Shown: positions 22,324 to 59,167 of the stretch, one piece after another | How the letters are laid out: each line of letters begins with the position of its first letter | Position numbering within the stretch: position 1 is the first letter of the stretch | DNA from: an uncultured Eubacteriales bacterium | Lineage (GTDB): Bacteria; Bacillota; Clostridia; Monoglobales; CAYZNM01 | Length of the DNA: 64,000 bases | Assembly: GCA_964479875.1 (NCBI GenBank) | Contig: CAYZNM010000013.1 | Span: forward strand, 21,573 to 85,572 | Direction: 5' to 3' | The notes under the pieces: generated by a model | What the model saw: the letters and a program-made list of their open reading frames with translations, nothing else | Told to the model about the DNA's origin: nothing | The model's database searches: none | Made by a program: the position numbers and the translations under genes

Positions 22324-22343
22324 TTAAATTCCCTTAATAAAAA

Positions 22344-23144: not shown

Positions 23145-23987
23145 TTATTTTACTGCTCCGATTTTTTGTTTTATCAAGGCTTCTGCTTCCTCCAGCGTGA
23201 CTACTGTTTTGCCCAGAACCTTTTGCATAAGGGTAGTTATTTCAGGGGGGGTTAGCTTAACCTGCGCTAATGCTTCTGCTTGCGCGAATACTTCGGCGGG
23301 AGTGCCTTGCAGGTGGATTTTGCCTTTGTTGAGGACGTAGACGTATTTTGTGCAGGAGGCAATTTCTTCCATAGAGTGAGAGATTAGCACGCAGGCTATG
23401 CCTGTTTTGCGCTGCATTTCTACGATTTCGTGCAGGATTTCGGTGCGGCCGCGCGGGTCTAGGCCTGCCGTGGGTTCGTCAAGCACGAGGCATTGCGGCT
23501 TCATGGCGAGCACTCCTGCTATTGCGACGCGACGCTTTTGTCCGCCTGATAGCATGAAGGGGGATTTTTCCAATAGGTCGGGACTTACGCCTGTGATTGC
23601 GATTGCTTCGTGGACGCGCTGCATTGCTTCTTGCATTGATAAGCCTTGTTGCAGCGGCGCGTAGGCTATGTCGAGGCGTACATTTTCCTCGAATAGCTGA
23701 TATTCGGGGTATTGGAAAACAAGACCAATCTTGCGCCGAATTTCGCGTTTATCCGTCTTTTTATCGGTGGTGTCAGCTCCGTCGACATAGACTTTGCCTG
23801 TATCGGGCAGCATAAGCCCGTTGAGCATTTGCACAAGCGTGGACTTGCCGCTGCCTGTATGTCCGATTATTCCGACGAAGTCGCCTTTGTTTATGCTAAG
23901 GCTGATACCTTCCAACGCCGTTTTCTCGAATGGAGTGCCTTTGGAGTAGGTGTAGCCTACGTTTTCTAGTTTGATTAATTCAGTCAT
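23145..23987 (-). CDS. ecfA2: Energy-coupling factor transporter ATPase (A2 subunit).
   Basis: Walker A 'GHTGSGKST', signature 'LSGGQKRRV', Walker B 'LVLDEPTAGLD'. Confidence 0.85.
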   Translation of the reverse strand: MTELIKLENVGYTYSKGTPFEKTALEGISLSINKGDFVGIIGHTGSGKSTLVQMLNGLMLPDTGKVYVDGADTTDKKTDKREIRRKIGLVFQYPEYQLFEENVRLDIAYAPLQQGLSMQEAMQRVHEAIAITGVSPDLLEKSPFMLSGGQKRRVAIAGVLAMKPQCLVLDEPTAGLDPRGRTEILHEIVEMQRKTGIACVLISHSMEEIASCTKYVYVLNKGKIHLQGTPAEVFAQAEALAQVKLTPPEITTLMQKVLGKTVVTLEEAEALIKQKIGAVK

Positions 23988-24309
23988 GTAATTTGTTCGG
24001 CATTTTTATTAGCCCTGCTTCCGTCAATCTTTGGATAGATTCGTTTATAGAATTTTCTAATTCTTCTTTGCAGTCATAATAAATTGCAAGTTGAATTGCG
24101 ACTGTCAATACATTCTTTATTTCGTCTGCCATTTTTTGTTTGCTTGGCTCGCCGTGCTTTAAGACTTTTATTCCGCTGCCTTCAAAGTGACAGACTTCGC
24201 TTGCAACCTCCCCGCATTCTTCGGCTAAACGAGTTGCAATTTGATAGGGAGAGTTGCCGTCGGGATATTTGATGTTGAGTGCATTCGCGAGAAGAAATAA
24301 GCTTTTCAT
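23980..24309 (-). CDS. MazG-like nucleotide pyrophosphohydrolase-domain protein (small, all-alpha) inserted between ecfA1 and ecfA2.
   Basis: 'LAEECGEVASEV ... ADEIKNVLTVAIQLA' fits the MazG/YpjD E-E-x-x-E ... E-x-x-D metal-binding pattern. Overlaps the ecfA2 start by 8 nt. Confidence 0.5.
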   Translation of the reverse strand: MKSLFLLANALNIKYPDGNSPYQIATRLAEECGEVASEVCHFEGSGIKVLKHGEPSKQKMADEIKNVLTVAIQLAIYYDCKEELENSINESIQRLTEAGLIKMPNKLHD

Positions 24310-24332
24310 TTTATACCCACAAATTATAAATC

Positions 24333-25187
24333 CTAATTTTTTATTAGACGCGATAATTCTTTCTCAACTTCGTCTGAGGTTAGACAATCGCGCACGTTTA
24401 TGCCGCTTTTGCGCAAATTATGCAGCAGCATGAGGGAATGCGGCACGCCTAAGCCTATGCCGTGCAGTAAATCCACATCACTAAGTGCAACGCGCGGCGT
24501 GTCTTTTAAGATAAGTCTGCCCTTGTCCATGACGATTACGCTGTCGGCTTCAAAGATTTCGTTGACGTTGTGGGTTATTAGGATTATGCCTATGCCTTTT
24601 TCTTTGTTGAGCTTGCGCAGCGTGGATAGGACTTCGCGGCGACCCATTGGGTCTAGCATTGCGGTCGGCTCGTCTAAGACGATATATTTGGGCTGCATTG
24701 CAAGTATTCCGGCGATTGCGATACGCTGCTTTTGTCCGCCGCTTAACATTTGCGGCGCGTGATTGCGATACTCTAGCATACCTACGGCGGATAGCGCAAA
24801 TTCCACGCGTTCACGAATTAGCGTGGGCGGCAAGCCTAAATTCTCGGGCGCAAATGCTATGTCGTCTTCGACAATTGTCGCCACGATTTGATTGTCCGGA
24901 TTCTGGAAAACAACGCCAATGCGCTGTTTTACATCATAGCTGTAGTGAGAATACTTGTCGAAGTTGCTTTTATGCTCACTGATGTCAGGAATTATCTCAT
25001 CTATGAATACATCTCCGCTAGTCGGAAAATGCGTCAGGTTGAAAATTTTGGCAAGCGTAGACTTTCCGCTTCCGTTATGACCCAGTATGCCGATGAACTC
25101 GGCGTCATTTATGGTGAAGGAAACGTCGTTGAGTACATACGGCGAATCCTCGGTGTATCTAAAACTTACGTTGTCGAATTTAATCAT
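24333..25187 (-). CDS. ecfA1: Energy-coupling factor transporter ATPase (A1 subunit).
   Basis: Walker A 'GHNGSGKST', signature 'LSGGQKQRI', Walker B 'IVLDEPTAMLD'. The ORF track extends to 25298, but that basic 37-aa extension is not ABC-like. The internal Met (MIKFDNVSF) abuts the upstream gene's stop and is the likelier start. Confidence 0.8.
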   Translation of the reverse strand: MIKFDNVSFRYTEDSPYVLNDVSFTINDAEFIGILGHNGSGKSTLAKIFNLTHFPTSGDVFIDEIIPDISEHKSNFDKYSHYSYDVKQRIGVVFQNPDNQIVATIVEDDIAFAPENLGLPPTLIRERVEFALSAVGMLEYRNHAPQMLSGGQKQRIAIAGILAMQPKYIVLDEPTAMLDPMGRREVLSTLRKLNKEKGIGIILITHNVNEIFEADSVIVMDKGRLILKDTPRVALSDVDLLHGIGLGVPHSLMLLHNLRKSGINVRDCLTSDEVEKELSRLIKN

Positions 25188-26026
25188 GATTTTGTGATGT
25201 ACGCGGAAATTCCGCAGGGTAGGTTGAAGCCGGATTGCCCAATCGGTATGCCGATTTCGCTTACCGCGACTTTTAGCTCGGGGAAGGCTTTTTTGCAAAG
25301 TAGGGTGAGCAGCTCCACACTTAACACGGTGGAGTAGCAGTTGATTAGCACAAATACAGGCTCTTCACTTAATATTGTAGCACACTCGCGCAGGAATGTA
25401 AATAGGTGCTCGTCAATTTTCCAAATTTCTCCATTTGGACCTCTTCCGTATGAGGGCGGGTCCATGATGATGGCGTCGTATTTGTTGCCGCGGCGCGATT
25501 CGCGCTGCACGAATTTTAGGCAGTCGTCGACGATGTAGCGAATGTTGGTGATTCCGTTGATGTTTGCGTTATGGCGTGCGTGGGCGACTATGCCTTTTGC
25601 GCTGTCGACGTGGCATACGCTTGCGCCGGCGTGGGCTGCGTAGACGGAGGCAGCGCCTGTGTAGGCGAATAGGTTGAGCAGCTTAACGTCGTGGGACGCC
25701 GATACTTTTTCGCGGATGAATCGCCAGTTGTATAATTGCTCGGGAAATAATCCCATGTGCTTGAAGCCCATTGGCTTTACCATGAAGCGTAGGCCGTCGC
25801 TTTCAAGCTCGAAGTCGCTTATATGCGTGCGAAAATCCCAATTGCCGCCGCCTTTGTCGCTGCGGACATAGCGCGCGGCGGGTTTATGCCACAGCGGATT
25901 ATCGCCGCGTTCCCACATTGCGACAGGCTCGGGGCGAATGAGAACATGCTTGCCCCATTGCTCCAGCCGCTCGCCGCCGCCTGCATCTATTAGCTTGTAC
26001 CCCTTTATTCCCTCCGCTGTCAGCAT
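25184..26026 (-). CDS. Class I SAM-dependent (rRNA) methyltransferase (RlmI/YwbD-like).
   Basis: 'LNLFAYTGAASVYAAHAGA' SAM-binding motif I and 'IIMDPPSYGRG' motif IV (DPP[FY]). Confidence 0.65.
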   Translation of the reverse strand: MLTAEGIKGYKLIDAGGGERLEQWGKHVLIRPEPVAMWERGDNPLWHKPAARYVRSDKGGGNWDFRTHISDFELESDGLRFMVKPMGFKHMGLFPEQLYNWRFIREKVSASHDVKLLNLFAYTGAASVYAAHAGASVCHVDSAKGIVAHARHNANINGITNIRYIVDDCLKFVQRESRRGNKYDAIIMDPPSYGRGPNGEIWKIDEHLFTFLRECATILSEEPVFVLINCYSTVLSVELLTLLCKKAFPELKVAVSEIGIPIGQSGFNLPCGISAYITKS

Positions 26027-46380: not shown

Positions 46381-47004
46381 ATGAATAACTTAAACATCAA
46401 GCAAATAGAAGTAGGCAAAAACAGCACAAACTGCTACATTTTGTCGTTAGGCGAGGATTGCGTCATCATAGACGCAGGCGGCGACAGCGACGTAATTATG
46501 AACTATATCGCAGAGGAATGCCTGAAGCCGCACTGCGTTGTACTAACGCACGGTCACTTCGACCACTTCATGGGGGCGAAGCAAGTCGCCGACGCCTACT
46601 CCATTCCGATAATCTGCCATGAAGCCGAGTTCAACATCTTGCAGGACGCAAACAACAACGGCTCCAACCTCGTACTGCGCAAAAACCTCACGCTCATTCC
46701 GGATAAAACAGTTGCCGACGGCGATATAATCACCGCAGGTGGATTGTCGCTCAAATGTATGCACACGCCCGGACATACCATAGGCGGCATGTGCTTACTG
46801 CACGAGGGCTTCGCATTCACAGGCGACACACTTTTCTTTGAATCCATCGGGCGCACAGACCTACCCACCGGCGACTACGACACAATCGTGCAATCCATCA
46901 AAAAGCTGTACACCCTAGACGAAGGCACAATCTGCTACCCAGGACACGGTCCGCGCACCACAATCGCATACGAAAAGGAAAACAACGCGTATGTGCAAAG
47001 CTAA
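46381..47004 (+). CDS. MBL-fold metallo-hydrolase (glyoxalase-II-like).
   Basis: 'VVLTHGHFDHFMG' HxHxDH motif plus later His/Asp ligands. Start moved to the MNNLNIKQ Met with an AAGGAG RBS (ORF-track start at 46339). Confidence 0.7.
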   Translation: MNNLNIKQIEVGKNSTNCYILSLGEDCVIIDAGGDSDVIMNYIAEECLKPHCVVLTHGHFDHFMGAKQVADAYSIPIICHEAEFNILQDANNNGSNLVLRKNLTLIPDKTVADGDIITAGGLSLKCMHTPGHTIGGMCLLHEGFAFTGDTLFFESIGRTDLPTGDYDTIVQSIKKLYTLDEGTICYPGHGPRTTIAYEKENNAYVQS

Positions 47005-48091
47005 CGCGTGGGGCAAGCTGACAGGCGTACGCCCAACTAAGCTGTACATGGATTATGTAAACCGATACGGCGCAGCAGACGCATCAGAATTATTCATGCG
47101 CGACTACGCCGTATCGCAAGCAAAAACAAAACAGCTTGCCGAAATCGCGCAGCAGGAAAAGCAAATAATTGCCGAGGTAGGCGAAAATTCTGCCGCGGTT
47201 TATGTAAATATACCTTTCTGCCCATCGCGCTGCCTTTATTGTTCGTTTGTGACTTGCATTAAGCAAACGCCTAAGATTATGGACGATTATGTTGCCGCTG
47301 TGATGCGCGAAATTGAGCGGCGGCAGTTTCCTGCGGCGAAGATTGCGTCTGTGTACATCGGCGGCGGCACGCCTATTTCAATCGGCGCGGCGCGATTGAG
47401 TGCGATTATTTCAGCATTGAAGCAGCGGTATGAAATTGCGCCCGACGTTGAATTTACTGTAGAAGCAGGGCGACCCGATTGCATTGACGGCGAAATATTG
47501 GACATGCTGCAATCCCACGGCGTAACGCGAATCTGCATTAATCCGCAAACGCTTAATGATTCCACGCTGGAATTAATCGGGCGCAAGCATTCGGCGGAGG
47601 ATTTTTTCGCAGCATATGCTATGTCACGCGGCAGATTCCGCATAAACTGCGACATAATCGTAGGGCTTCCCAACGAGAGCATGGACGACTTTACTGCAAC
47701 TTTAGACGGAGTACTGTCGTGCGAACCGCAGGGGATTACCGTGCATACATTATGCGTAAAACGCGGCTCGCGCTTGAATGAATATATCGGCGACTACGAC
47801 CTATCGACCGGGAACACTCGCGAAATGACCGACTACGCCTATCGCAAGCTATCGACAAGCGGCTACCCTCCCTACTACCTCTATCGTCAAAAGAAAACGC
47901 TCGGCAACCTCGAAAACATCGGCTACAGCAAGCCCTCGCACCATTGTCTGTACAACATCATCAGCATTGCCGAAAGCCACAGCATTTACGCCTACGGCGC
48001 AGGCGCAGTGACAAAAATTGTCGCGGACAATATCACGCGCGAGTGGAACAACAAAGAACCGATGGCATACATCAGGGAGCAGCTCACTTGA
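46991..48091 (+). CDS. Radical SAM protein of the coproporphyrinogen-III oxidase-like (HemN/HemW/HemZ) family.
   Basis: 'VNIPFCPSRCLYCSF' CxxxCxxC motif and 'VYIGGGTP' SAM-binding block. About 70-aa N-terminal extension before the radical-SAM core. Confidence 0.65.
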   Translation: MCKANAWGKLTGVRPTKLYMDYVNRYGAADASELFMRDYAVSQAKTKQLAEIAQQEKQIIAEVGENSAAVYVNIPFCPSRCLYCSFVTCIKQTPKIMDDYVAAVMREIERRQFPAAKIASVYIGGGTPISIGAARLSAIISALKQRYEIAPDVEFTVEAGRPDCIDGEILDMLQSHGVTRICINPQTLNDSTLELIGRKHSAEDFFAAYAMSRGRFRINCDIIVGLPNESMDDFTATLDGVLSCEPQGITVHTLCVKRGSRLNEYIGDYDLSTGNTREMTDYAYRKLSTSGYPPYYLYRQKKTLGNLENIGYSKPSHHCLYNIISIAESHSIYAYGAGAVTKIVADNITREWNNKEPMAYIREQLT

Positions 48092-48482
48092 ACACGACAA
48101 AGCGGCTGAAAATATAGTTCAGCACCACCACGATAAAGTTGGACACAACCTTCACAAGAAGGTCGTTTATTCCGAAATTCGTGACAAATACATACAAAAT
48201 CACTGTGTCGATGATTAAGGTCGCAACGCGAATGGTGAAAAAACGCACAAGTTGTTTTGTGGCGTGAACCTTGCTCTCCGATTTGTTGCGGAACACGAAT
48301 TGCTTGTTTGTGACAAATGCGAAGAACACCGATATGATGAAGGCGGGAATGTTGCTGTCGACGACGTTCCAGCCTAAAAAGCGCGTGCAAAAGCTGTAGA
48401 CGCCGAAGTTTATCACGGTCGTGACGCCGCCGAACAGCATGTAGTAGATGTAGCTTTGATATTTATGGAATAATTGTTTCAT
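48084..48482 (-). CDS. GtrA-family membrane protein.
   Basis: 132 aa, 4 TM. 'FGGVTTVINFGVY...' GtrA-like N-terminus. Last gene of the minus-strand operon. Confidence 0.65.
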   Translation of the reverse strand: MKQLFHKYQSYIYYMLFGGVTTVINFGVYSFCTRFLGWNVVDSNIPAFIISVFFAFVTNKQFVFRNKSESKVHATKQLVRFFTIRVATLIIDTVILYVFVTNFGINDLLVKVVSNFIVVVLNYIFSRFVVFK

Positions 48483-48485
48483 ACT

Positions 48486-49145
48486 TTACCTACGTTCCAA
48501 GTTGTACTTTTTTAGGACGCGACGGATTATGCGCGCGAAGGGTGCGCCTGCGGTTAGCAGCAATGTGACATTTGTCGCGGCGTGCGCTATGTCCATCGGC
48601 AGTGACGCTGCCAATGCCGCGATATACGCAGGAAGCCCAAGCTCCTCGCCGGAGATTACATACCACTGCAAATTCATTATCGCACCGAAAACCATTGCCG
48701 ATACCGCTCCGTATATCGCGAGTACATACTTATTTTTGTTCGGGATAACTCCCGCACCCAGACCCATTAAGCCCCAGCCGATTATCTGGAACAGCGTCCA
48801 CATGCCCTGACCTAGTGTGATGTTGGAAGTCACTGCTGATATTATGCCCACGAGCATACCTGCTCCGCCGCCCATTGCCCAGCCGCTGATTATTACGATG
48901 AATGACGACGGAGTGATGTTCGGCAGTGCAGCGAAGGCTATGCGCGAAACTGCGGCGGTCGCAGATAATACGGCGAGCAGCACCATGTATTCGATCGCCG
49001 CGCCGCGCTCATACTTGTACACACACGCGGCTATCGCAAGCAAAGAGGCGCACATCGCTGAATACGCGTACTGCCGCGATATAGCCAACGCAATCACTCC
49101 TGCCGCGCAAGCAATCGCAATCAAAGCCAATGCAATCTTACGCAT
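48486..49145 (-). CDS. Putative ECF-transporter substrate-specific (S) component of unknown specificity.
   Basis: About 6-TM small hydrophobic protein immediately downstream of the fused ECF ATPase and T component. The ORF-track start (49268) adds a basic non-membrane extension; MRKIALALIA abuts the ATPase stop. Confidence 0.45.
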   Translation of the reverse strand: MRKIALALIAIACAAGVIALAISRQYAYSAMCASLLAIAACVYKYERGAAIEYMVLLAVLSATAAVSRIAFAALPNITPSSFIVIISGWAMGGGAGMLVGIISAVTSNITLGQGMWTLFQIIGWGLMGLGAGVIPNKNKYVLAIYGAVSAMVFGAIMNLQWYVISGEELGLPAYIAALAASLPMDIAHAATNVTLLLTAGAPFARIIRRVLKKYNLERR

Positions 49146-49146
49146 A

Positions 49147-50667
49147 CTACAATCCCTCGATGGTGCGCAGATTGCACGCTTGCGCGGCTTGCGCGAATGT
49201 GAGCGCGTTGCCGCCGATTGCTTTGTGCAGCTGCGTTGTGTAGAATATGTTGTCGGCGAAGAAATCAAGCGGTGGGGCTTCGTGCGCGATTTGTCCGTCG
49301 AAAACTAGGGCGCAGCGGTCGGCGGCTTGTGCCGCGAAATCCAGGTCGTGGGTTGTGATTATTGTTGTGATTTGCAGTTCGTGAAGCAGTCGCAGCAGCG
49401 TTTGCTTTGTGTTGTCGTCCATGCCTTTGGTTGGCTCGTCGAGAAGCAGCAGCTGCGGCTTTTCAAGCAATGCGGCGGCAATCGCGACACGCTGACGCTC
49501 GCCGCCGCTTAGGTCGTATGGGTGCGCATTTAGCAAATGCGACAGGTTGAATTGCTCGATGATTTTATGCTTTTGCTCACATTCTATCAGCTCATCTCCC
49601 ACTTTTTCGTGGCGAAAGTATGCGTTGATATTTTGTGGAATGTATGCCGCTTTAAGCTTGGGTGATTTACCCGAGGTAGGCTTGATGATTCCTGCGATAA
49701 TCTTCAGCAGCGTAGTTTTGCCGCTACCGTTGCCACCGATTATGCACAAGCATTCGCCGCTGTAAATCGTGAGGTTCAGGCGATTTAGTACAGGTGCGCT
49801 GTCTTTGTTGTAGATTTGTATTATGTCAACTAGCTTAAATAGTACATCGCGCTTTTGTGGAATTTCAGCTATAACCTTCGCGGCAGGCAGACTTTCCGCA
49901 AGCGCACGGCTCTCCTTCACAGAAAGCGGCGGATTATCACCGTCGGTCGCGGCAAAATATAGCTTTTGCAGCGGTGGAATATGCGCGTATGCTTGCTTAT
50001 CCCTTTTCTGCCAAATATCGCGCAGCACAGCCTTAGGGCTGCCACTGTAGCGCATTGTCGTATTCAGCACGAACATTTTGTCCGCATAGGGCAGTATGTT
50101 CTCAATATTATGCTCCGCAATCAGCACAGTTATGCCGCACTCGCGGTTGAGCCGCAGCACTAGGTCGAGCAAATCCCGCGCGTTAATCGGGTCTAGCATA
50201 GACAGCGGTTCGTCAAGCAGAAGCAGCTTCGGCTGCGTCATCAAAGCCGACGCAAGCGTCACAAGCTGCTTCTGTCCTCCCGATAAAGTTTCGCAGTCTG
50301 CGTCGAGCAATCGTTCGATTCCAAGAAAGCTCGCGGTTTCCGCAAGCCGCTTCCGCATTATAGCATTGGGCAAGCCGTGATTTTCCATAGGGAAAACAAG
50401 TTCCTGCCGCACAGTGCTTCGCACAATCTGCGTGTTAGGGTTCTGTGATACAATTGCAATCTCACTGTCGTCGCAGCCGATGTATATCTCTCCCGATACA
50501 GTGCCGTTAGGGCGCAGCGCTTTCTTTAGCAAATGCAGCAGCGTAGACTTTCCGCTGCCCGAAATTCCGCACAACGCGCCAATCTCGTGCCGCGCAAGCG
50601 ATAGTGTGACGTTGGATAGTATCGGCGTATTCTCATATGAAAAATGTAGGCTGTTAATCTTTAACAT
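49147..50667 (-). CDS. Fused tandem ECF-type ABC ATPase (EcfA1-EcfA2 duplication in one polypeptide).
   Basis: Two complete nucleotide-binding domains: Walker A 'GISGSGKST' and 'GGNGSGKTT', signatures 'LSGGQKQLV' and 'LSGGERQRV', Walker B 'LLLDEPLSMLD' and 'LLLDEPTKGMD'. Confidence 0.8.
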   Translation of the reverse strand: MLKINSLHFSYENTPILSNVTLSLARHEIGALCGISGSGKSTLLHLLKKALRPNGTVSGEIYIGCDDSEIAIVSQNPNTQIVRSTVRQELVFPMENHGLPNAIMRKRLAETASFLGIERLLDADCETLSGGQKQLVTLASALMTQPKLLLLDEPLSMLDPINARDLLDLVLRLNRECGITVLIAEHNIENILPYADKMFVLNTTMRYSGSPKAVLRDIWQKRDKQAYAHIPPLQKLYFAATDGDNPPLSVKESRALAESLPAAKVIAEIPQKRDVLFKLVDIIQIYNKDSAPVLNRLNLTIYSGECLCIIGGNGSGKTTLLKIIAGIIKPTSGKSPKLKAAYIPQNINAYFRHEKVGDELIECEQKHKIIEQFNLSHLLNAHPYDLSGGERQRVAIAAALLEKPQLLLLDEPTKGMDDNTKQTLLRLLHELQITTIITTHDLDFAAQAADRCALVFDGQIAHEAPPLDFFADNIFYTTQLHKAIGGNALTFAQAAQACNLRTIEGL

Positions 50668-51475
50668 TAATTTGCACGTCCATTATAATAGGAAGCAATG
50701 TGTAAAACGCAATCAAAGGCAGCGCGGCAGCTTGTGCAACAAATATCGCAGTCACCACAACTGAGCACAGCGTTAAAAACGCAGCGTCGCTTGCCTTAAA
50801 CTCCTGCCGTGCATACGCGGTGCGCGACACGGTGTCGTACCCCTTCACCTTGATGCTTTGCGCAAGCTGCATACCTTCCTCGAGCGACCAAGTAAGCAGT
50901 GTCTTGATTGTATCGGATGCTTGCGCGAGGGGATTCGCGGACTTTGCGCGCAAACCCTGCACCTCCGCTATCTCCTTGATGCGCTTGCCGTACAAAAACA
51001 TCAGCCGCACCGACATATCAACGGTCAGCGCAAGCTTGGGCATAACCTTCGCAAACAGCAGCATAACCCTGTCGCCTGTTACTACAGCGTTGTAAAACTG
51101 AAACAGCGTGTAGCTGTTGAATATCAGCAGCGCAAAAACCACGCCTAGGATAATCGCTTCGACCGTGATGGGGTTGTCCATGAAGTAGAACAATATCCCC
51201 CTGCCGCGATGGTTGAACAGCGGCGTAAGTATCGCATACGCAATCATCGCCGCGGCGACAAATTTGTACGAACTCATGCGCAATCTCGCATAAGCCGCCG
51301 CGCAAATCAGCAACATCACTGCCAACAGCAAGCTTTCAACAAGCTCGCGCCGCGTAAACACAATTGCAAACAGTGCGGTAAAATAAACAAAAAGCGACAG
51401 CGGATGTACATTATAAAAGCGCGACAATGCAAGCCGCGCTAATCTATCTTTGTAGGCTTTTCCAAAAATCGCCAT
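50654..51475 (-). CDS. ECF-transporter T component (CbiQ family).
   Basis: Polytopic membrane protein with the CbiQ-like C-terminal region, overlapping the ATPase gene start. Confidence 0.65.
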   Translation of the reverse strand: MAIFGKAYKDRLARLALSRFYNVHPLSLFVYFTALFAIVFTRRELVESLLLAVMLLICAAAYARLRMSSYKFVAAAMIAYAILTPLFNHRGRGILFYFMDNPITVEAIILGVVFALLIFNSYTLFQFYNAVVTGDRVMLLFAKVMPKLALTVDMSVRLMFLYGKRIKEIAEVQGLRAKSANPLAQASDTIKTLLTWSLEEGMQLAQSIKVKGYDTVSRTAYARQEFKASDAAFLTLCSVVVTAIFVAQAAALPLIAFYTLLPIIMDVQINVKD

Positions 51476-52170
51476 TCTACAATATCACCTGCTGCTAGGT
51501 CGCACTTTCCTGCGCTCACCTTGGGTATTTCGCCGTTGACGTAGTATTGCCAGCCGCTTTCCGCGCCGTTGTCGCCTTCATAAAGGTTGTCGATTCCCTT
51601 TATGTATACGTTGCTGCCTACGCCGCCGAATTCCATTTGAATTTTGTTGGCGCGAGTTATGTCTTTGAGGAGGGAGAATACGGTCATTTCGTCGGAGTAT
51701 TCGGCTTGGGTCTGGGCCAGGATTGTGCTATCAAAGCCTTCGATTGTGATTGAAACAGTTGCGGCAGCCGGAGTTTGCTCCGGTTCTGCTGTAGTTTCTT
51801 GTGTTTGCTCCGGCTCTTTGGTTTTATCATCAGATTTAGCCACTGTCGTCACGGTAGAGTTTAATGTGGTGGACAGTGTTGTGGTTACAGTCGAATCAAG
51901 TGTTGTTGCGATTTGCTTGGTCGGTTCAGGCGAAGGCTCGGGGGTTGCTTCCTCAGTTGCTTCAGGCTCTTCCGTAGGCTCTTCGGATTGTTCCGGCTCT
52001 ATTTTCTTTATGGTGGCAGGAGAGGGCGGCTCGGTCGGTTCAGGCTCGGGCTGCTCCGCATATGTTTCGACCGCAGCAGGAGGAACGTCCTCCTGCGCAG
52101 TCGGAGTTATCGTAATCGTGCAGGCCGACAGCAGCAATACCGCAGCCAGTATCATCATTATAAGCTTCAT
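51439..52170 (-). CDS. Secreted lipoprotein with a C-terminal DUF4430 (transcobalamin beta-domain-like) domain.
   Basis: Lipobox 'LLSACT'. Pro/Glu/Thr-rich linker. The C-terminal ~90 aa 'VSITIEGFDSTILAQT...GAESGWQYYVNGEIPKVSAGKCDLAAGDIVEWRF' resembles the DUF4430 pattern (GWMY.VNG ... L.DGD.IEWRY). Confidence 0.6.
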   Translation of the reverse strand: MKLIMMILAAVLLLSACTITITPTAQEDVPPAAVETYAEQPEPEPTEPPSPATIKKIEPEQSEEPTEEPEATEEATPEPSPEPTKQIATTLDSTVTTTLSTTLNSTVTTVAKSDDKTKEPEQTQETTAEPEQTPAAATVSITIEGFDSTILAQTQAEYSDEMTVFSLLKDITRANKIQMEFGGVGSNVYIKGIDNLYEGDNGAESGWQYYVNGEIPKVSAGKCDLAAGDIVEWRFLEKPTKID

Positions 52171-53561
52171 CTATTCGCAGCGTCCCTCATTTCTTGTTCA
52201 GCGAAAAATTCGATTATCGCCGTAATTACTATGTCGCGGCGCATGTAGTCGTTTACATCGAAGTTGTGGCGTTTCTTGAACGATTCCATGAATGCGCTGC
52301 CGAAGTTTGCTTCCAGGTTTTCCATATAAATGTTCGCACTTAGCGAAATGTTGTCAAGGTTAAGCTCCATTATGCTTTTAGTGACTTGCTTTTTGTATTC
52401 GTTTTCGCCGCCCTCGGATAGGGTGATGTGGTAAAAGTTGAGGTGCTTGCATAGGTCGTAGTAGCCTGTGCCCTCGAATATGTCCATGTAGCGGAGCAGC
52501 ATTAGCACGTAGTCGGTCATGCGCACGTATTCGTTCGGGTATAGCTTGCCCTCGCTGCCTAAGGCTACGCCTTTTTGCCTTGCTGTTTTGATTGCGTTCA
52601 ATGTTGTGGGTAACGCTTTGCCGATGTCGAAATACTGCGGATAGTAGCGTTCGCCGCTTAGGTATGCGTAGTAGTCACATAATGCCATGAGTGCTTGCTC
52701 GTTGGAATAATCGTCCGCCGCGGAATTGTCCATGTAGCCGAAGCCGCCGCCCTCTGCCTTAAATGTCAGCAGATTGTCAAGCAAGCTCGCGTCTTTAACG
52801 AATCTCTCGTCGCTCGCGGAATCAACTCCAAGCGCAGACAGTGCGGAAATCACGGTCGCGGCAGTGTTGGAGTTTTCGCTGCCCCACGACATAAATCCGC
52901 CGCCAGAAGTTTGCGTCTGCGACAATAGCTCCACACACTTGTCCGCGATCGCGGAGGCTTTCGCGTACAGCGGATGGCTTTCGATTGCGCAGTACGGTGC
53001 AAGCGCGATTAGCACAAGCGATGTCGCGTCAGGGTCGAAATCCTCGCCTGTGAAGGAGAATCCGCCGCCTTCAAGCTGCCCTTCGGCGATTGCGTCGATG
53101 TACTTCTCTGCGCTGTTGCTTGCGTCATAGGGGAACGCGTAGTTCACCTCGGTCAACGCGCGCAGTGCGTAAGCGTAGGAAATAGGCGACAGCATTAAGC
53201 TTGAATCTGCGTTGGCGATTACGCTGTATAGGTTAATCTTGCCGCTCTCGGTCTTGATGTTTGCGCAGTCCACGCCAAGGCTGCTAAGGCACATTGCAAG
53301 CTTTGCATAATCCGTAACAGAGGTGCGTTTTCCTGTTTGCGCAGCTTTGTCCAAATAGTAGTCGATGTGCTTCTGCTTGTCGAATTCAACCCCTGCCTTC
53401 ACAAGTGAAATCACAGCCCACTCCGACAATATCTCGGAATCCTGCATAGTCGCGTAAAGCTGTTCAATCTCCTGTGAAATATCCTCGCGCGGCGATTCGG
53501 CATACACTGTAAAGCTGCACGCAAGCACAACCAACGCAATCAAGCATGTCTTTATTTTCAT
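52167..53561 (-). CDS. Secreted alpha/alpha-toroid protein (prenyltransferase/squalene-oxidase repeat-like).
   Basis: Signal peptide (MKIKTCLIALVVLACSFTVYA). Repeated helical hairpins with 'GGGF' motifs (EGGGFSFTG, SGGGFMSWG, EGGGFGYMD) typical of terpenoid-cyclase-like alpha6/alpha6 toroids. ORF-track start at 53624. Confidence 0.5.
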   Translation of the reverse strand: MKIKTCLIALVVLACSFTVYAESPREDISQEIEQLYATMQDSEILSEWAVISLVKAGVEFDKQKHIDYYLDKAAQTGKRTSVTDYAKLAMCLSSLGVDCANIKTESGKINLYSVIANADSSLMLSPISYAYALRALTEVNYAFPYDASNSAEKYIDAIAEGQLEGGGFSFTGEDFDPDATSLVLIALAPYCAIESHPLYAKASAIADKCVELLSQTQTSGGGFMSWGSENSNTAATVISALSALGVDSASDERFVKDASLLDNLLTFKAEGGGFGYMDNSAADDYSNEQALMALCDYYAYLSGERYYPQYFDIGKALPTTLNAIKTARQKGVALGSEGKLYPNEYVRMTDYVLMLLRYMDIFEGTGYYDLCKHLNFYHITLSEGGENEYKKQVTKSIMELNLDNISLSANIYMENLEANFGSAFMESFKKRHNFDVNDYMRRDIVITAIIEFFAEQEMRDAANR

Positions 53562-53592
53562 TATTTTTCCTTCCATCAATAAGGCTTTGAGG

Positions 53593-54852
53593 TTATTTTT
53601 TCCTCTTGCGCCTTTTATATGCACTGCGCAGAATCGCGCGAATGATAAAGTATAAAGCTATCAAAATCACACAGACGCCGCCTGTGAGCAGCAAGCCTGT
53701 CGATACCCATTTTTCGCCCAGCATGTCGATTAGCTTTGCTTGATACAGCGATATGTAATCGAGCTGCACATTGTCTGCGGCGGCAAGCGGCACTGCCGCA
53801 ATAAGCTTGCCGTTGACGTAGTAGCGCGCTTCGGCGTAAATCTCGCCCTTTGTAACAGGGGCGGTCAGCGGCTCGACTTCGATTTCCGTTTCTACCTTGT
53901 CGCCGCTGCCTAACAGGCAGTTGACGTTATCGGTCGACAGCAGCAGCACATGCCCCTTATTCTTACCATGGGTAACAGGTACTTCGCGTACAATTTCGTC
54001 CAGTCGCATAAGCGACACGTTGCCGTAATCAGTTTCCACGTAGTCGTAGAGCTGCTGCGCCATTGCGTAGCTTTGCTTGATTCCGTCAACTATGTCCGCA
54101 TTCGCGATAATCGCCGTGACAAATGCGCCGTCCTTCTTCCAGAACACGGCCATGGTTTCGCCGTTTACAGGGCAAAAGCCGCCGATGAATCGCTCGTCGA
54201 TAAGCCTGTCGTCGTGGAAAACTTCGATAAAGTGGTTGTTGGAGTAGATGTATCGCGCAGGACCTATGTTTGTCGCGGGATATGACACTCTCCCGGTCGA
54301 CAATATCGATTGCAGATGAGGATTGCGCATTGCCTCATTAAATAATATGTTCAGGTCAGCTAGGGTTGTGTATCCCTGTGACGCAGGTATTCCTGCCGGA
54401 TTGGTGAAGTTGGAGTTGCTCATGCCAAGCTCCGCCGCTTTTTTATTCATAAGACGCGCGAATTGCTCGAGGCTGCCGCTTATCTCGTACGCAAGCGCGT
54501 ACGCCGCGTCGACAGCGTTGCCGACCAGCATTCCGTTAAGGCACATCTCGGCCGTGACAACCTCGCCCACCTTCAAGCGCATGTTGCGGTAGCTGTTGAA
54601 ATACGCGACACGCATGTCCTCGGTAAAGACAATGTTTCGGCTCATGCCTATATTTTCGACGGCGACAAGCGCAGTCATCAGCATTGCGTAATCCTGCCCC
54701 ACGATACGCATGTCCGCGTTTTGCGAAAATATAACCGAGCCGCCGTCCGCCGAAAGCAACACTGCCGCATTAGGGGTAAAAGTCGGCGCGGCAAAACAAA
54801 CCTGCACCGTAAGCACAATCGCAAGCAGCAACAGCACTAGCTTAAATCTCAT
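53593..54852 (-). CDS. PBP5/DacA-like D,D-carboxypeptidase homologue lacking the catalytic SxxK Ser and Lys (predicted pseudo-enzyme), C-terminally membrane-anchored.
   Basis: Signal peptide. 'SQNADMRIVGQDYAMLMT' aligns to DacA 'EQNADVRRDPASLTKMMT' with Ser to Asp and Lys to Met. C-terminal TM plus RKRKK stop-transfer. Confidence 0.55.
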   Translation of the reverse strand: MRFKLVLLLLAIVLTVQVCFAAPTFTPNAAVLLSADGGSVIFSQNADMRIVGQDYAMLMTALVAVENIGMSRNIVFTEDMRVAYFNSYRNMRLKVGEVVTAEMCLNGMLVGNAVDAAYALAYEISGSLEQFARLMNKKAAELGMSNSNFTNPAGIPASQGYTTLADLNILFNEAMRNPHLQSILSTGRVSYPATNIGPARYIYSNNHFIEVFHDDRLIDERFIGGFCPVNGETMAVFWKKDGAFVTAIIANADIVDGIKQSYAMAQQLYDYVETDYGNVSLMRLDEIVREVPVTHGKNKGHVLLLSTDNVNCLLGSGDKVETEIEVEPLTAPVTKGEIYAEARYYVNGKLIAAVPLAAADNVQLDYISLYQAKLIDMLGEKWVSTGLLLTGGVCVILIALYFIIRAILRSAYKRRKRKK

Positions 54853-55475
54853 ACAAAACTTTCTGTTATAACATTAATAGCGTCGTCCTTGACAATAAGC
54901 TGGCCGCGCTCGCTTAGCTGCCCAAGCTTAATAAGACTGTTATCCTGCTTCATCGCAAATTCATGCAGCAGATTGTCTATGTCCTCGCCATTGAGCGGAC
55001 TTTTAAGTTCCAGCGACAAATAGTAAGTATTTTCCAGCATATACAACGCGCTCAACCCAATGAATCGGTTCTTGATAACATTGCACGCGTCAATCAAATC
55101 GTCAAGCTGCGTAAACTCGTACACGATGGGGTTGTGGAACACGCGCGTGGTTTTAAGCCGCGCGCGAATCTCATTCTTGCGAATGCGCGACTTCACAATG
55201 CGCTCAAACCGCGCCTCATCCTCATCAAGCTTGGTGATTATCATAACAAAGCCCTCGCTGCGTGCAGGCATAGCCTCCACGATAAGCTGTGAGCCGTCGA
55301 TAAAAAAGTTCGCCTCCGTTTCAGCCTTGCGAATCATGCTCCAAAACAGCTCCTGCGTTTCGGGCGAATTATATGAAATTGCGTTCAAATCTATATCCCA
55401 CTCACGCAGGTCGTCCATTGTAAGAGTAACTTTAATTTTGTTTGGGGAAATGCGCTCTATCTTAATAATAATCAC
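54849..55475 (-). CDS. mecA: MecA-family adaptor protein (ClpC adaptor).
   Basis: 'IERISPNKIKVTLTMDDLRE...ELFWSMIRKAETE...FIDGSQLIVEAMP...NTYYLSLEL...ERGQLIVKD' is collinear with the B. subtilis MecA pattern (IERINEHTVKF...ELFWEVMDE...YYLYVDF...EYGKLIISE). Confidence 0.75.
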   Translation of the reverse strand: MIIIKIERISPNKIKVTLTMDDLREWDIDLNAISYNSPETQELFWSMIRKAETEANFFIDGSQLIVEAMPARSEGFVMIITKLDEDEARFERIVKSRIRKNEIRARLKTTRVFHNPIVYEFTQLDDLIDACNVIKNRFIGLSALYMLENTYYLSLELKSPLNGEDIDNLLHEFAMKQDNSLIKLGQLSERGQLIVKDDAINVITESFV

Positions 55476-55572
55476 CTCTTTGGCAAATCAGTTACATATA
55501 TTATAACTTTTATTAGCCGCATTGTCAAGGCTATATGCGACTTCGGCACTAATTCCCAACAACGACGCTGTT

Positions 55573-57351
55573 TCATTCCACGTACCATTTAGCTTGTGCG
55601 CGGTACATTTTCGCGTACAGGCCGTCGTGCGAAATTAGCTCGGCGTGGCTTCCGTCCTCGACAATTCTGCCCTTGTCGAACACAAGCACGCGGTCAACCA
55701 CGCTTGTGATACCTAGTCTGTGAGAGATGAGGATTGTCGTTTTGTCGCCTGTTAGCTGCGTGAAGTTGCGGTAGATTCCGGCTTCGGCGATTGGGTCTAG
55801 TGCGGCGGTGGGTTCGTCTAAGATGTACACGCGTGCGCTTTTGCGATAGAGTGCCCGAGTTATCGCAACCTTTTGCCACTGTCCGCCCGACAGATTGTTG
55901 CCTTCGTCCGAGAATATGCCAATCATTTCATCTAGCGAATTTTCCTGCCCCTTTATCACTTCGTCGGCGCCTGTGCGATGCGCAAGTTCCAGTATTTCAC
56001 TGCTTTCTCCGGCGCGCGTCGGGTCTGAAATGGTGATGTTGTTGCGTAGGGTGTCTTGATATTGGCAAAAGCTTTGGAATATAACCGAGAGTGATTTGCG
56101 AACCCTTGAGAGGTTTTGCGTTATCTCTGCGCCATTTATTTTTGCGCTGCCGCTTTCGGGCGCATACAATCCGCATAGGAGGTTTACGAAGGTTGATTTG
56201 CCACTGCCGTTTGCGCCTACTATCGCAACCTTTTCGCCCTGCCGAATTTTTATTGAAAGTCCGTCTAATGCTTTAAATTCGCTGTGCGGATAGGTGAAGC
56301 TTACGTTGGCAAACTCAATTTCCGCATTTGCGTAACCTACTTGTGCGTCGTCCAAAACTTCCTTTTCGGTTTCCAATAATTCGAAGAAGTCCTCGATGTA
56401 TTTTGCGTCGGAAAATATGCTGACTGCGTTGATTAGCAGCGTCGTCGTGATGGATTGCAGCTGCCCTGCCGCTGTGACAACTAGCATAAACGCGCCTAGC
56501 CCCTTGGTCGGATTCTGAAATATCTCCCACGCGGCCATCAATATAACTGCCAGATAAACACCATTGCGCAGCAAATCGGCAATGCCGTTGTACAACACAT
56601 GCTTGCGCGTTATTTTATTCTTCTCATTGATAAATATCTCGCCCAAAGCGAACCACTTCGCTTTAAGATACTGATAAAGCCCGAAGAATCGTATCTCCTT
56701 CATGGCTTGATTGGAGCGGCAGGTGTCGGAAAGCTGAAGCGTCAATCGCCCTTCCTTCATCCATTTGGTGCGTCCGCGATATGTTTCGTCCTTTTGCAGC
56801 ATGGACAAAATTACCGACGGAATGCAGGTGACAATCAGCACGGCGACAATCCATATGCTGACCTCCGACAGGATAAATGTTATGCTTGCGAACGAGATTA
56901 TTCCGGCAATCCAACCGAATATGAGCGATACGCTGCCTGCTGTTTTTTCGCCTGCGTAGGTTTTTACGAAGTCTACTCGTTCGCGGAAATCGCCGTGGTT
57001 TTCTATATATTTGTACGGCACGCTTGATAGTAGGTGCAGCATTTGCTCCTTCAAATATCTCTTAATCCGCGCGGAATCCTCGCCGGCATAATAGTTTTGC
57101 GCAAGGGTGAAGAGCGTTTGCAGCGTGTACAGCACGGCTAGTATGCCGAAGGATAGTATAACTGCATTGAGAGTTTCGGGGTTATCGAACAAGGCTTGCA
57201 CGCCGTTTGTAAACGCCGCAAGCCTAAGCGATATGAACATAGGCAGAAATGCGGCGGCGAATCCGAGAATGCTTACGATAAATGACATCGGGCTTTTGAT
57301 TCGCACGCTAAGAGCGACTGCGCGCATAAAATATTTGAATTTACTCATCAC
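55573..57351 (-). CDS. ABC exporter, fused permease/ATPase (type I exporter, half-transporter).
   Basis: Six N-terminal TM helices. NBD with Walker A 'GANGSGKST', signature 'LSGGQWQKV', Walker B 'YILDEPTAALD'. Confidence 0.85.
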   Translation of the reverse strand: MMSKFKYFMRAVALSVRIKSPMSFIVSILGFAAAFLPMFISLRLAAFTNGVQALFDNPETLNAVILSFGILAVLYTLQTLFTLAQNYYAGEDSARIKRYLKEQMLHLLSSVPYKYIENHGDFRERVDFVKTYAGEKTAGSVSLIFGWIAGIISFASITFILSEVSIWIVAVLIVTCIPSVILSMLQKDETYRGRTKWMKEGRLTLQLSDTCRSNQAMKEIRFFGLYQYLKAKWFALGEIFINEKNKITRKHVLYNGIADLLRNGVYLAVILMAAWEIFQNPTKGLGAFMLVVTAAGQLQSITTTLLINAVSIFSDAKYIEDFFELLETEKEVLDDAQVGYANAEIEFANVSFTYPHSEFKALDGLSIKIRQGEKVAIVGANGSGKSTFVNLLCGLYAPESGSAKINGAEITQNLSRVRKSLSVIFQSFCQYQDTLRNNITISDPTRAGESSEILELAHRTGADEVIKGQENSLDEMIGIFSDEGNNLSGGQWQKVAITRALYRKSARVYILDEPTAALDPIAEAGIYRNFTQLTGDKTTILISHRLGITSVVDRVLVFDKGRIVEDGSHAELISHDGLYAKMYRAQAKWYVE

Positions 57352-59167
57352 CTGCCACCTCCGCGTCTTTTTGATACCACTGGGCTTGCTCGTTGAAAAA
57401 TTGAGCGTATAAGCCGTTTTTCGCCATCAGCTCGTCGTGGGTGCCGATTTCGGCAACCTTGCCGCTGTCGAGCAGGATAATCCTGTCGGCAAGCCGCGCA
57501 AAGCCTACGCGGTGGCTGATTAATATTGCGGTACGTCCTTCGATTTTCTCCTTGATGTTGGTGAATTGTTCGAGTTCGGATATGGGGTCGAGCATTGACG
57601 CAGGCTCGTCGAAAATTAAAATGTCCTTGTCGCTCATGTGTGCGCGGGATACAGCGAGTTTTTGCTTCTCACCTCCCGAAAACTCTGCTCCTGTTTCTTC
57701 AATCCATTTGTATATGAAGGTGTCCTTGCCTTTTTCGAGGCGTGATACAAAGCTTGACGCTCCGCCTTTTGTCAGGGCGGCGTTTATCTTTTCATCATCT
57801 GCCACGTGGTCGATGTCGCCGAAGCCGATGTTTTCGCCGATTGGCGAGTGGAATAGGTAGTAGTCTTGGAAAAACGCACCTATTTTGTTTTTGAGGAAGC
57901 CATGCTCCAGTTTTTCGTAGTCGTCGCCGTTGAAGAATAGCTTGCCCGAAAGCGGCTTGTATAGTTGCAGCAGCAGCTTGATGAGCGTGGATTTGCCGCT
58001 GCCGTTTACGCCTACTAATGCGATTGTTTCGCCTTTTTTGATTGACAGCGACACATTGTCAAGTGCAAGCTTGTCACTCTTGTAGGAGTAGGATAGATTT
58101 TTTGTTTCAAATACAATGTCTGATTCCGCGGCCGCCTTTGATTTAGCTTGCGACTGCGTCGGCGCAGGTTTGCGTAAGCCGAATATGCGATACTGCCGCT
58201 CCAACGCGTACATGCCGTGGTCGGTTAGCATTAGCGTGCGCGCTATGCCTGACACCGATGTGAAAATGTTCATGCAGAACGTGTATATCACAAGCAGCAC
58301 TGCCGCCGTCATACTTCCGTTTGCCACAGCGAACAGCGAATAAATCGTCATAGCAGCAAGGAATATGTAAAAGCCAAAGCCGCTGATGAATGTTCGTATT
58401 TCCACAGCGAGATTGTTTTCCACCTCGTAGTTGTATATCGCGGAATATGCTTCCTTCCAATTCTTGATAAGCCGCTCCTTCGACTCGAAAATACGCAGCT
58501 CCTTCGCGTATTCCTGCGAATAGGGCATGTCCTCGTAATGGCCTGCAAGCCGATCCTTGTCGCGAATTTTGTGCCAATTATACCGCAGCTTTTCTACAAA
58601 CACGAGGTTCAGCCAAATAATGCCAATCACATATACAAGCGAAATTACAAATATCAGCTTAGACAAAGTGAACGCGACCGTGAGCAATGACACAAGCCCC
58701 ACGAATTTGCCGAGCAACGTGCAGCAGCCGCTGATTACATCGGTAAGCGAGCCCTCGCGCATTACGCAAGCGTAGTATTCGTCGTTGGTGTCCTTTTTGA
58801 GCAGCTCCTCCATCGAGAAAGTTTGTACGCTGTCCATCAACAATTCCGACATACCGAAGTAATATTTGTTGTACATGACCGAGTAAAGGAACTCGACGTT
58901 GAAGCGATTGGAAAGTCCGATTAACGCTGTGATGATTCCGAACATTACAATCGTCGGCAGTATGTCGTCGAAGCTTCCGCTGCCTGTTGAGATAAAGCTG
59001 TTCAGCGCGGTGATGATTGCTTTGTTGTACGCAAGTGCAATCGCAGGCAGCACCGATATTGCCGACACTAGCAAGCACCACGTAAGCAGCACAACCTTGT
59101 CGACCTTCCACGCAAGCGAAAACGCCCAGACCATTGCTTTGAGCTTGTGCCCTTTGGTTTGATTCAT
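57341..59167 (-). CDS. ABC exporter, fused permease/ATPase (partner half-transporter).
   Basis: TMD plus NBD with 'GVNGSGKST', 'FSGGEKQKL', 'LIFDEPASMLD'. Its stop overlaps the downstream partner's start by 11 nt, which fits a heterodimer. Confidence 0.85.
   Translation of the reverse strand: MNQTKGHKLKAMVWAFSLAWKVDKVVLLTWCLLVSAISVLPAIALAYNKAIITALNSFISTGSGSFDDILPTIVMFGIITALIGLSNRFNVEFLYSVMYNKYYFGMSELLMDSVQTFSMEELLKKDTNDEYYACVMREGSLTDVISGCCTLLGKFVGLVSLLTVAFTLSKLIFVISLVYVIGIIWLNLVFVEKLRYNWHKIRDKDRLAGHYEDMPYSQEYAKELRIFESKERLIKNWKEAYSAIYNYEVENNLAVEIRTFISGFGFYIFLAAMTIYSLFAVANGSMTAAVLLVIYTFCMNIFTSVSGIARTLMLTDHGMYALERQYRIFGLRKPAPTQSQAKSKAAAESDIVFETKNLSYSYKSDKLALDNVSLSIKKGETIALVGVNGSGKSTLIKLLLQLYKPLSGKLFFNGDDYEKLEHGFLKNKIGAFFQDYYLFHSPIGENIGFGDIDHVADDEKINAALTKGGASSFVSRLEKGKDTFIYKWIEETGAEFSGGEKQKLAVSRAHMSDKDILIFDEPASMLDPISELEQFTNIKEKIEGRTAILISHRVGFARLADRIILLDSGKVAEIGTHDELMAKNGLYAQFFNEQAQWYQKDAEVAGDE

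Follow-up and report, generated by a model that had tools for sequence, protein, structure and literature searches.

A putative corrinoid importer with a split transcobalamin-like binder behind a mecA/dead PBP5 gene pair in an uncultured Clostridia bacterium

The closest described relatives of the gene cluster analysed here are uptake systems of Gram-positive bacteria. In L. sakei, the genes lsa1836-1840 encode an S component, a fused A-A' ATPase, a T component, a transcobalamin-beta-like protein and a transcobalamin-alpha-like protein (Verplaetse et al.). The T, fused ATPase and S genes of the L. plantarum plasmid pMF1298-5 were named CbrV/U/T in the plasmid's paper. The transporter ECF-CbrT of the energy-coupling factor (ECF) type, structure 6FNP, takes cobalamin and cobinamide as substrates, with no competition by hemin (Santos et al. 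eLife 2018). Bacterial toroid and transcobalamin-like SLBB proteins encoded together with CbiO/CbiQ-like genes were predicted to scavenge B12 (Burroughs et al. 2007; PMC1796856), and transcobalamins have DUF4430 as their C-terminal domain (PMC4350170). The cluster treated here lies on contig CAYZNM010000013.1 of an uncultured Eubacteriales bacterium of the Clostridia, in a stretch of 64,000 nucleotides that was analysed as a whole and is called the window in the following. It consists of eight co-directional open reading frames (ORFs) on the minus strand (48084-55475), which encode, in the direction of reading, a MecA-type adaptor, a catalytically dead PBP5-like protein, an alpha/alpha-toroid protein, a DUF4430 protein, an ECF T component (ecfT), a fused A-A' ATPase (ecfAA), an S component (ecfS) and a GtrA-family protein (gtrA).

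It is likely that this cluster is made up of three separable units, namely the mecA/dead PBP5 pair, a five-gene ECF importer and an orphan gtrA, and that the importer takes up a corrinoid by means of a split transcobalamin-like binder and is probably read through from the mecA promoter. Directly supported are the gene identities, the loss of the catalytic motifs in the PBP5-like protein, the synteny of the cassette, the homology to CbrT, the riboswitches that accompany homologous cassettes and the absence of synteny between mecA and the cassette. From homology and gene order, the five-gene unit is assigned to the group-I (dedicated) ECF importers of the CbrTUV/Lsa1836-1840 type, which are known and widespread.

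All five proteins of the cassette match the L. curvatus orthologue of the lsa1836-1840 locus in the same order (LPXTG-toroid, DUF4430, EcfT, fused ABC ATPase, S), with 24-42% identity and E values of 7e-11 to 3e-80 in tblastn searches; a Dyp peroxidase gene lies nearby, as in L. sakei. The L. sakei and L. curvatus loci differ from the window in that their alpha-like surface protein is anchored by LPXTG, whereas that of the window is apparently lipid-anchored and has an extra C-terminal region. Moreover, they have neither mecA and the dead PBP5-like gene ahead of the cassette nor gtrA, and the L. sakei system has been assigned to heme uptake. On pMF1298-5, T, fused ABC ATPase and S genes are accompanied by a gene mis-labelled 'lectin' and a DUF4430 gene, next to cobS, and the plasmid's CbrU/V/T proteins match the T, A-A' and S proteins of the window. 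The mis-labelled gene, annotated 'fucose-binding lectin II' and situated between S and DUF4430 (8623-9675 of locus L092), probably encodes by its position the alpha subunit of the binder, yet it gave no tblastn match to the window toroid.

The same arrangement recurs in metagenomes. Eighty metagenome loci carrying S homologues were compared, 36 of which extend at least 6.5 kb upstream of the S gene; in 27 of these 36 all five families of the cassette are present, almost always in the order of the window. One locus (L099, 3764-9585) has two consecutive sets of T and A-A' genes ahead of a single S gene; shortly downstream (9803-10002), the opposite strand carries a cobalamin riboswitch. An exhaustive search for the S-component family returned 1718 library representatives at E<=1e-3, and natural S-toroid and AA'-S fusion proteins are found among the S homologues.

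The product of ecfS belongs to the Pfam family ECF_trnsprt (43 bits, 1e-10). Its residues 51-202 have only one significant sequence match in the Protein Data Bank (PDB), the 182-residue chain 6FNP_A (E 3.7e-11), which is entitled 'Membrane protein' and which we infer to be the CbrT subunit of the ECF-CbrT B12 transporter. In the Rodionov nomenclature the window system would stand with CbrTUV. The CbrT of L. delbrueckii, however, depends on a shared housekeeping module, EcfAA'T, and lacks an extracellular binder, in contrast to the window, where a dedicated T component, a fused A-A' ATPase and two binder genes are present and a riboswitch is missing. The fused ATPase contains two ABC_tran domains, for which ECF_ATPase_1 and ECF_ATPase_2 are the best NCBIfam models. 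Both halves have intact motifs in the translation (GSGKST, LSGGQ and LLLDEP in one, GSGKTT, LSGGE and LLLDEP in the other), so that the single-polypeptide A1-A2 fusion recognised on reading the sequence is confirmed as two complete nucleotide-binding domains. It resembles the fused ATPases of loci L091 (38% identity, 3e-80) and L092 (34%, 3e-87).

The T component is more easily overlooked. The ecfT product has no Pfam match even at E<=10, is missed by the Pfam CbiQ model and has no usable sequence match in the PDB. By tblastn it matches the annotated EcfT proteins of L. curvatus (4.6e-17) and of L. plantarum pMF1298-5 (1.7e-15), which are encoded at the same operon position; the alignment to the L. 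curvatus protein begins at residue 3 and supports the start at ATG 51475. These matches to annotated T components establish that ecfT encodes the cluster's own T component. The gene at the T position of another related cassette (L173, 3666-4544) also lacks a Pfam match, and T components of this cassette family are likely left 'hypothetical' in automatic annotation. For annotation this means that the T component escapes the CbiQ model, while the toroid appears as 'prenyltransferase', 'LPXTG protein' or 'lectin'. That the transporter is a second, dedicated ECF system also holds: the housekeeping module, composed of a methyltransferase gene, two A genes, a CbiQ-type T gene and truA, is located separately at 21580-26026.

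The two proteins encoded ahead of the transporter subunits are secreted. Their signal peptides contain the lipobox-like motifs VLAC (toroid) and LSAC (DUF4430 protein), as read in the translations, which places both proteins outside the cell; the toroid is probably lipid-anchored. The DUF4430 protein consists of the lipobox LLSAC, a Pro/Glu/Thr-rich linker and a C-terminal domain (residues 163-235) that resembles the transcobalamin beta domain and matches PF14478 with 61.6 bits against a cutoff of 23.8 (1e-16); it is 38% identical (1e-16) to the DUF4430 protein of L. curvatus. With the LPXTG protein encoded at the corresponding operon position in L. curvatus, the toroid shares 26% identity (7e-11). 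Its homologues are very often fused to DUF4430 or bear SLH, LPXTG or dockerin domains, which identifies them as cell-surface proteins. Searches of PDB sequences with the toroid and the DUF4430 protein gave nothing usable. Pfam scores of the toroid for Prenyltrans and SQHop remain below threshold. In the AlphaFold2 (AF2) model, residues ~25-305 have a predicted local distance difference test score (pLDDT) above 90 and the C-terminal ~160 residues are of low confidence. This C-terminal region (residues ~306-464; 52167-52640) is predicted to be helical, likewise at low confidence, and has no family match; it is here that the homologues bear their SLH, LPXTG or dockerin anchors.

Foldseek matches of the window toroid were mixed, with terpene cyclases, prenyltransferases and transcobalamin/haptocorrin among them. 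Because the toroid alone did not discriminate between transcobalamin and terpene cyclases, a natural toroid-DUF4430 fusion (P0136) that sits in the same T, A-A', S cassette was modelled (mean pLDDT 85). All 15 of its best PDB fold matches were transcobalamin, intrinsic factor or haptocorrin, covered both domains and had E values of 1e-8 to 1e-6; terpene cyclases ranked behind, at 2.7e-5 or weaker. The model superposes on the isolated transcobalamin beta domain at 2.8 Å, and the whole-chain rmsd of 12-17 Å indicates that the identities and the order of the domains are reproduced but not their arrangement. From this modelling, and from the homologues fused to DUF4430, the toroid and DUF4430 proteins appear to form the alpha and beta halves of a split transcobalamin-like binder, which had not been recognised when the sequence was first read. 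With transcobalamin, intrinsic factor, haptocorrin and the proteins of Burroughs et al. (2007) the window system has in common a secreted toroid and a beta-grasp DUF4430 domain, encoded with CbiO/CbiQ-like genes. It differs from them in that the two domains are on separate polypeptides, each with a lipoprotein-type signal; sequence identity to the animal proteins is 12-14%. The toroid was also considered as an enzyme, a prenyltransferase or cyclase; this was rejected, since it is secreted, stays below the Pfam thresholds and has homologues fused to DUF4430 or to an S component. One locus (L090, 8001-9603) has a pair of toroid and DUF4430 genes but no ECF genes; the pair comes after genes for a MoxR-type AAA protein, a DUF58 protein and a transglutaminase and before a group of recombinase genes. 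The two binder genes can therefore occur separately from those of the transporter.

In the mechanism proposed for the window system, the toroid (alpha) and the DUF4430 protein (beta), both exported with lipobox-type signals, would enclose the corrinoid between them on the outside of the cell and deliver it to the CbrT-like S component; the latter would import it at the expense of ATP, powered by the dedicated T component and the fused A-A' ATPase. The cassette would be expressed by read-through from the strong constitutive mecA promoter, not in response to B12 levels; this is suggested because the copy lacks the riboswitch usual in the family and adjoins the mecA/PBP5-like pair, being separated by 31 nt from the dead PBP5-like gene.

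That the substrate is a corrinoid, vitamin B12 or cobinamide, is predicted mainly from the homologues. Twenty-eight cassette loci were scanned with Rfam, four of which were set aside because their upstream region is cut by a contig end. In 16 of the 24 assessable loci a cobalamin riboswitch (RF00174, 37-135 bits) lies upstream on the same strand, and in 12 it abuts the first gene of the cassette. In a neighbour-joining tree of the S components, which is star-like, loci with a riboswitch are found on every branch. A pattern scan of the S components was based on an 11-sequence alignment, a 41-sequence alignment being too diverse.

Several observations weigh against a corrinoid as the substrate of the window copy. 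Neither a cobalamin riboswitch nor a relic of one was found, with Rfam at the gathering threshold over the whole 64 kb or in a permissive scan (E<=5) of 47500-56500, so that this copy carries no direct B12 signal. In identity, the window S component stands as close to the L. curvatus protein (42%, 2.6e-35) as to the riboswitch-controlled ones (33-40%), and it forms a long unaffiliated branch of the tree, which did not place it in a 'B12' or a 'heme' clade. With the window toroid alone, fold matches did not set transcobalamin apart from terpene cyclases. The sole genetic experiment on a cassette of the same order, the deletion of lsa1836-1840 in L. sakei, was reported to impair heme accumulation, not B12 uptake (Verplaetse et al.). 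The cassette might accordingly import heme or another iron-tetrapyrrole, as reported for L. sakei, for which the identical gene order of the L. curvatus orthologue, the similarity of its S protein and the missing riboswitch of the window can be adduced, as can the HemZ-type radical SAM gene that adjoins the cluster in convergent orientation (46991-48091). This gene is for the same reason not co-transcribed with the cassette. Heme nevertheless appears to be a rather improbable substrate. The only solved relative of the S component is the chain of 6FNP taken to be CbrT, and hemin does not compete for transport there; homologous cassettes in all major branches of the S family have cobalamin riboswitches ahead of them; the L. 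plantarum homologue is located among cobalamin salvage genes; and the architecture of the binder is that of B12 carriers. Corrinoid import is the more plausible model, and the window cassette would be one more example, without a riboswitch, of a widespread Gram-positive uptake system whose binder is the bacterial counterpart of transcobalamin. Direct tests of whether such a cassette takes up B12 or heme exist for one species only. The comparator loci of L. curvatus and L. plantarum also contain no riboswitch. At the gathering threshold, Rfam found no tRNA, riboswitch or other RNA family anywhere in the window.

The two genes ahead of the cassette have a different history. MecA of the window matches Pfam MecA (PF05389) with 129.7 bits against a cutoff of 22.5 (1.6e-37) at profile positions 2-220 of 221. 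As in the ClpC adaptor MecA of B. subtilis, the N- and the C-terminal domains are both covered by this full-length match. The window protein differs in that it scores below every NCBIfam MecA equivalog cutoff (best model NF002781, 92.9 bits against 224) and in that a dead PBP5-like gene comes next in the window lineage; by these scores it is a divergent family member and not a demonstrated equivalog. It was aligned end to end with 25 homologues, all of which begin with MKIERI. Where all 25 start, the window has ATT (55466), and its relatives in loci L005 and L089 have ATG; the annotated GTG (55475) falls within the Shine-Dalgarno-like AAGAGGTGA. The mecA gene may start at the rare ATT codon or at a poorly placed GTG. 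The closest homologues are those of L005 (58% identity; uncultured Eubacteriales CAYPOE01) and L089 (54%; CAZWQG01). The mecA genes whose products are 45-49% identical are instead followed by an Orn/Lys/Arg decarboxylase gene. The alignments give no sign that mecA of the window is a dedicated paralogue, since it aligns over its full length with MecA proteins in varied housekeeping contexts.

The PBP5-like protein scores 80.3 bits with Peptidase_S11 (cutoff 27.6; 2e-22) and 34.7 bits with PBP5_C (cutoff 21.2) and has 35 relatives in the PDB. Alignments to solved penicillin-binding proteins (PBPs) and to database homologues show that all three catalytic motifs are replaced, SxxK by DYAM, SxN by NAV and KTG by FCP. 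The gene is dead, as had been read from the sequence, and because all three motifs are lost the product is to be classed as a pseudoenzyme, not as a carboxypeptidase. It has an N-terminal signal peptide, a C-terminal transmembrane (TM) helix and a polybasic tail. With the class C low-molecular-weight PBPs of the PBP5/DacA type (MEROPS S11) it shares the S11 fold, the PBP5 C-terminal domain, export and a C-terminal membrane tether. It is distinguished from them by the replacement of the motifs, the catalytic Ser and Lys being gone in three orthologues, and by a true TM helix with a polybasic tail where they have an amphipathic anchor. The two other orthologues, from L005 and L089, are 38% and 35% identical to the window protein. 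In L005, mecA is followed by the PBP5-like gene and then by a peptidase gene on the opposite strand, in L089 by the PBP5-like gene and then by a Lon_C/ChlI-type gene and DegV; neither locus has ECF genes there.

As judged from these loci, mecA and the dead PBP5-like gene are a pair that is conserved in a small clade together with a consensus promoter of its own; the pairing is a minor novelty, seen in a lineage of uncultured Clostridia. Among database homologues, the PBP5-like protein is closest to P0002 (32% identity), which has an unrelated ribF context. In P0002, P0004 and P0019 (L001-L004), the nearest database relatives, SxxK and SxN are kept and NAG replaces KTG; these proteins end with a TM helix and a basic tail, and their genes are downstream of ribF. 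They may constitute a partly degenerate PBP5-like subfamily. It is conceivable, if improbable, that MecA and the pseudo-PBP form a functional module in which the latter would sense or bind stem peptides of peptidoglycan outside the cell and engage MecA/ClpCP through its polybasic cytoplasmic tail. If so, regulated proteolysis would be tied to the status of the cell wall, and B12 import in this organism would be expressed with the module. The pairing could point to a link between a ClpC adaptor and the cell wall, although so far only gene order speaks for it.

The sequence-only reading had gone in another direction and had suggested that MecA may link regulated proteolysis to the uptake module. 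On this view MecA would be a dedicated paralogue coupling ClpC-dependent proteolysis to transport, for example by degrading or assembling components. The leading position of mecA, the tight spacing of the genes and the single strong promoter agree with such a role. The comparison with other genomes does not. Eighty MecA loci from GTDB species representatives were searched by tblastn with the eight window proteins. The dead PBP5-like gene was seen only in L009, which is on the same contig as L005, and no match to the toroid, the DUF4430 protein, ecfT, ecfS or gtrA was obtained in any of the 80. The linkage is equally absent from L089, and mecA, the dead PBP5-like gene and gtrA occur in none of the 80 S-component loci. 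This absence of synteny in related genomes, which that reading had itself named as the result that would speak against it, contradicts the proposed tie. Around the two nearest mecA orthologues, the dead PBP5-like gene and the perfect promoter are retained but the genes downstream are unrelated, and the toroid and DUF4430 proteins are extracellular, beyond the reach of a cytoplasmic adaptor. A coupling of MecA to the importer is therefore highly improbable. Among the loci examined, only this genome joins the mecA/dead-PBP5 pair to the transporter, and the junction looks like an accident of gene order and not like a new regulatory system.

An accidental junction can still be transcribed as one unit. 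The promoter directly upstream of mecA matches the sigma-70 consensus at all 12 positions, and equally perfect promoters precede the mecA orthologues of L005 (1398-1426) and L089 (1868-1896). No sigma-70-like site with at least 9 of 12 matches is present on the minus strand between mecA and the toroid gene (53562-54850) in a scan limited to sigma-70. The eight genes are thus probably transcribed together from one strong promoter, and the co-transcription claimed on first reading the sequence is plausible in so far as there is one perfect promoter and no internal sigma-70 site. It is weakened by two weak terminator-like hairpins and by the nature of the argument, which is drawn from gene spacing and from a scan for sigma-70 sites. 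One hairpin with a T-run (53686-53670) lies within the PBP5-like coding sequence, 75 nt before the stop codon; the other (51440-51418), an 8-bp stem (6 GC) followed by TTTATAAT, coincides with the stop codon of the DUF4430 gene, within the 5' part of ecfT. Alternatively, mecA and the PBP5-like gene may be one transcription unit and the cassette with gtrA a second, with a weak or non-sigma-70 promoter of its own in the 3' end of the PBP5-like gene, in which case they would be neighbours and not one operon. The 31-nt gap ahead of the toroid gene falls exactly on the evolutionary seam, the first hairpin lies shortly before it, and in the relatives unrelated genes follow the mecA/PBP5-like pair, on the opposite strand in L005 and on the same strand in L089. 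This alternative is unlikely, given that the scanned interval contains no sigma-70-like site, that the 53686-53670 hairpin is weak (7 pairs, 4 GC) and lies within coding sequence, and that the region has about as many terminator-like sites as chance would give (23 against an expected 17.2 +/- 4.4). Read-through from the mecA promoter is thus preferred.

The weak hairpin at 51418-51440 could attenuate transcription or stabilise mRNA, with more binder than membrane subunits being made as a result; it may also have arisen by chance. The ideal mecA promoter is kept in three genomes in which MecA is only 54-58% identical, an unusual degree of conservation.

The layout of the cluster (Table 1) agrees in most points with what had been read from the sequence. 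The eight minus-strand ORFs are found where they had been placed, and the gene identities are right, those of mecA, the PBP5-like gene, the DUF4430 gene, the fused ATPase gene, ecfS and gtrA by Pfam and NCBIfam and that of ecfT by tblastn. Every junction was read straight from the window sequence. ATGA overlaps join mecA to the PBP5-like gene (54852/54849) and the toroid gene to the DUF4430 gene (52170/52167); ecfT begins 37 nt within the DUF4430 gene (ATG 51475, stop 51439), and ecfAA overlaps ecfT by 14 nt (50667/50654). A single nucleotide separates the stop codon of ecfAA (TAG, 49149-49147) from the ATG of ecfS (49145), and three nucleotides lie between ecfS and gtrA. Five of the six junctions reported earlier are thereby confirmed. 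The sixth, an overlap of the PBP5-like and toroid genes (53624/53593), holds only with the longest-ORF start of the toroid gene, GTG 53624. An ATG at 53561 is the likelier start, since it is preceded by the Shine-Dalgarno-like GGAAGG, a signal peptide (MKIKTCLIALVVLAC...) opens at once, and a database protein 100% identical to the toroid (P0067) also has 464 residues. With this start the junction would be a gap of 31 nt, not an overlap.

Table 1. Positions in the window of the genes of the cluster and of the promoter ahead of it
Feature	Position	Strand	Basis or remark
Sigma-70 consensus promoter	55500..55528	-	TTGACA, 17 nt, TATAAT; 12/12 match; 5' of mecA
mecA-type adaptor gene	54849..55475	-	Pfam MecA; 208 aa from GTG 55475 (true start may be ATT 55466)
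Catalytically dead PBP5-like (S11) gene	53593..54852	-	Peptidase_S11 and PBP5_C; motifs lost
Gene for secreted, probably lipid-anchored alpha/alpha-toroid	52167..53561	-	AF2 model, Foldseek, fusions of homologues
DUF4430 lipoprotein gene	51439..52170	-	PF14478
Gene for dedicated ECF T component (CbrU-like)	50654..51475	-	tblastn to annotated EcfT
Gene for fused A-A' ECF ATPase (CbrV-like)	49147..50667	-	Two ABC_tran domains
Gene for CbrT-family ECF S component	48486..49145	-	PF12822; 6FNP_A match
Gene for GtrA-family small membrane protein, last in cluster	48084..48482	-	PF04138

The last gene of the cluster stands by itself. GtrA scores 89.4 bits with PF04138 (cutoff 26.1; 2.5e-25). The cluster contains no adjacent GtrB-type glycosyltransferase partner, the next gene being the convergent hemZ. 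A role of gtrA as part of the transporter was rejected, as no homologue exists in any of the 80 related cassette loci, and it is treated as an orphan third unit. The product of hemZ, encoded on the plus strand, matches TIGR03994 with 408 bits against a cutoff of 321; the gene shares 8 nt with the 3' end of gtrA, and no clear terminator was found between the two. An importer of the tetrapyrrole type here has a tetrapyrrole-related gene next to it, though not one that is transcribed with it. A gene for an MBL-fold hydrolase precedes hemZ, and upstream of the cluster two ABC exporter genes are located on the same strand (55573-59167). The other neighbours are generic and include genes for YchF, an aldolase, a response regulator, an SPFH protein, rubrerythrin, APH and UPF0182.

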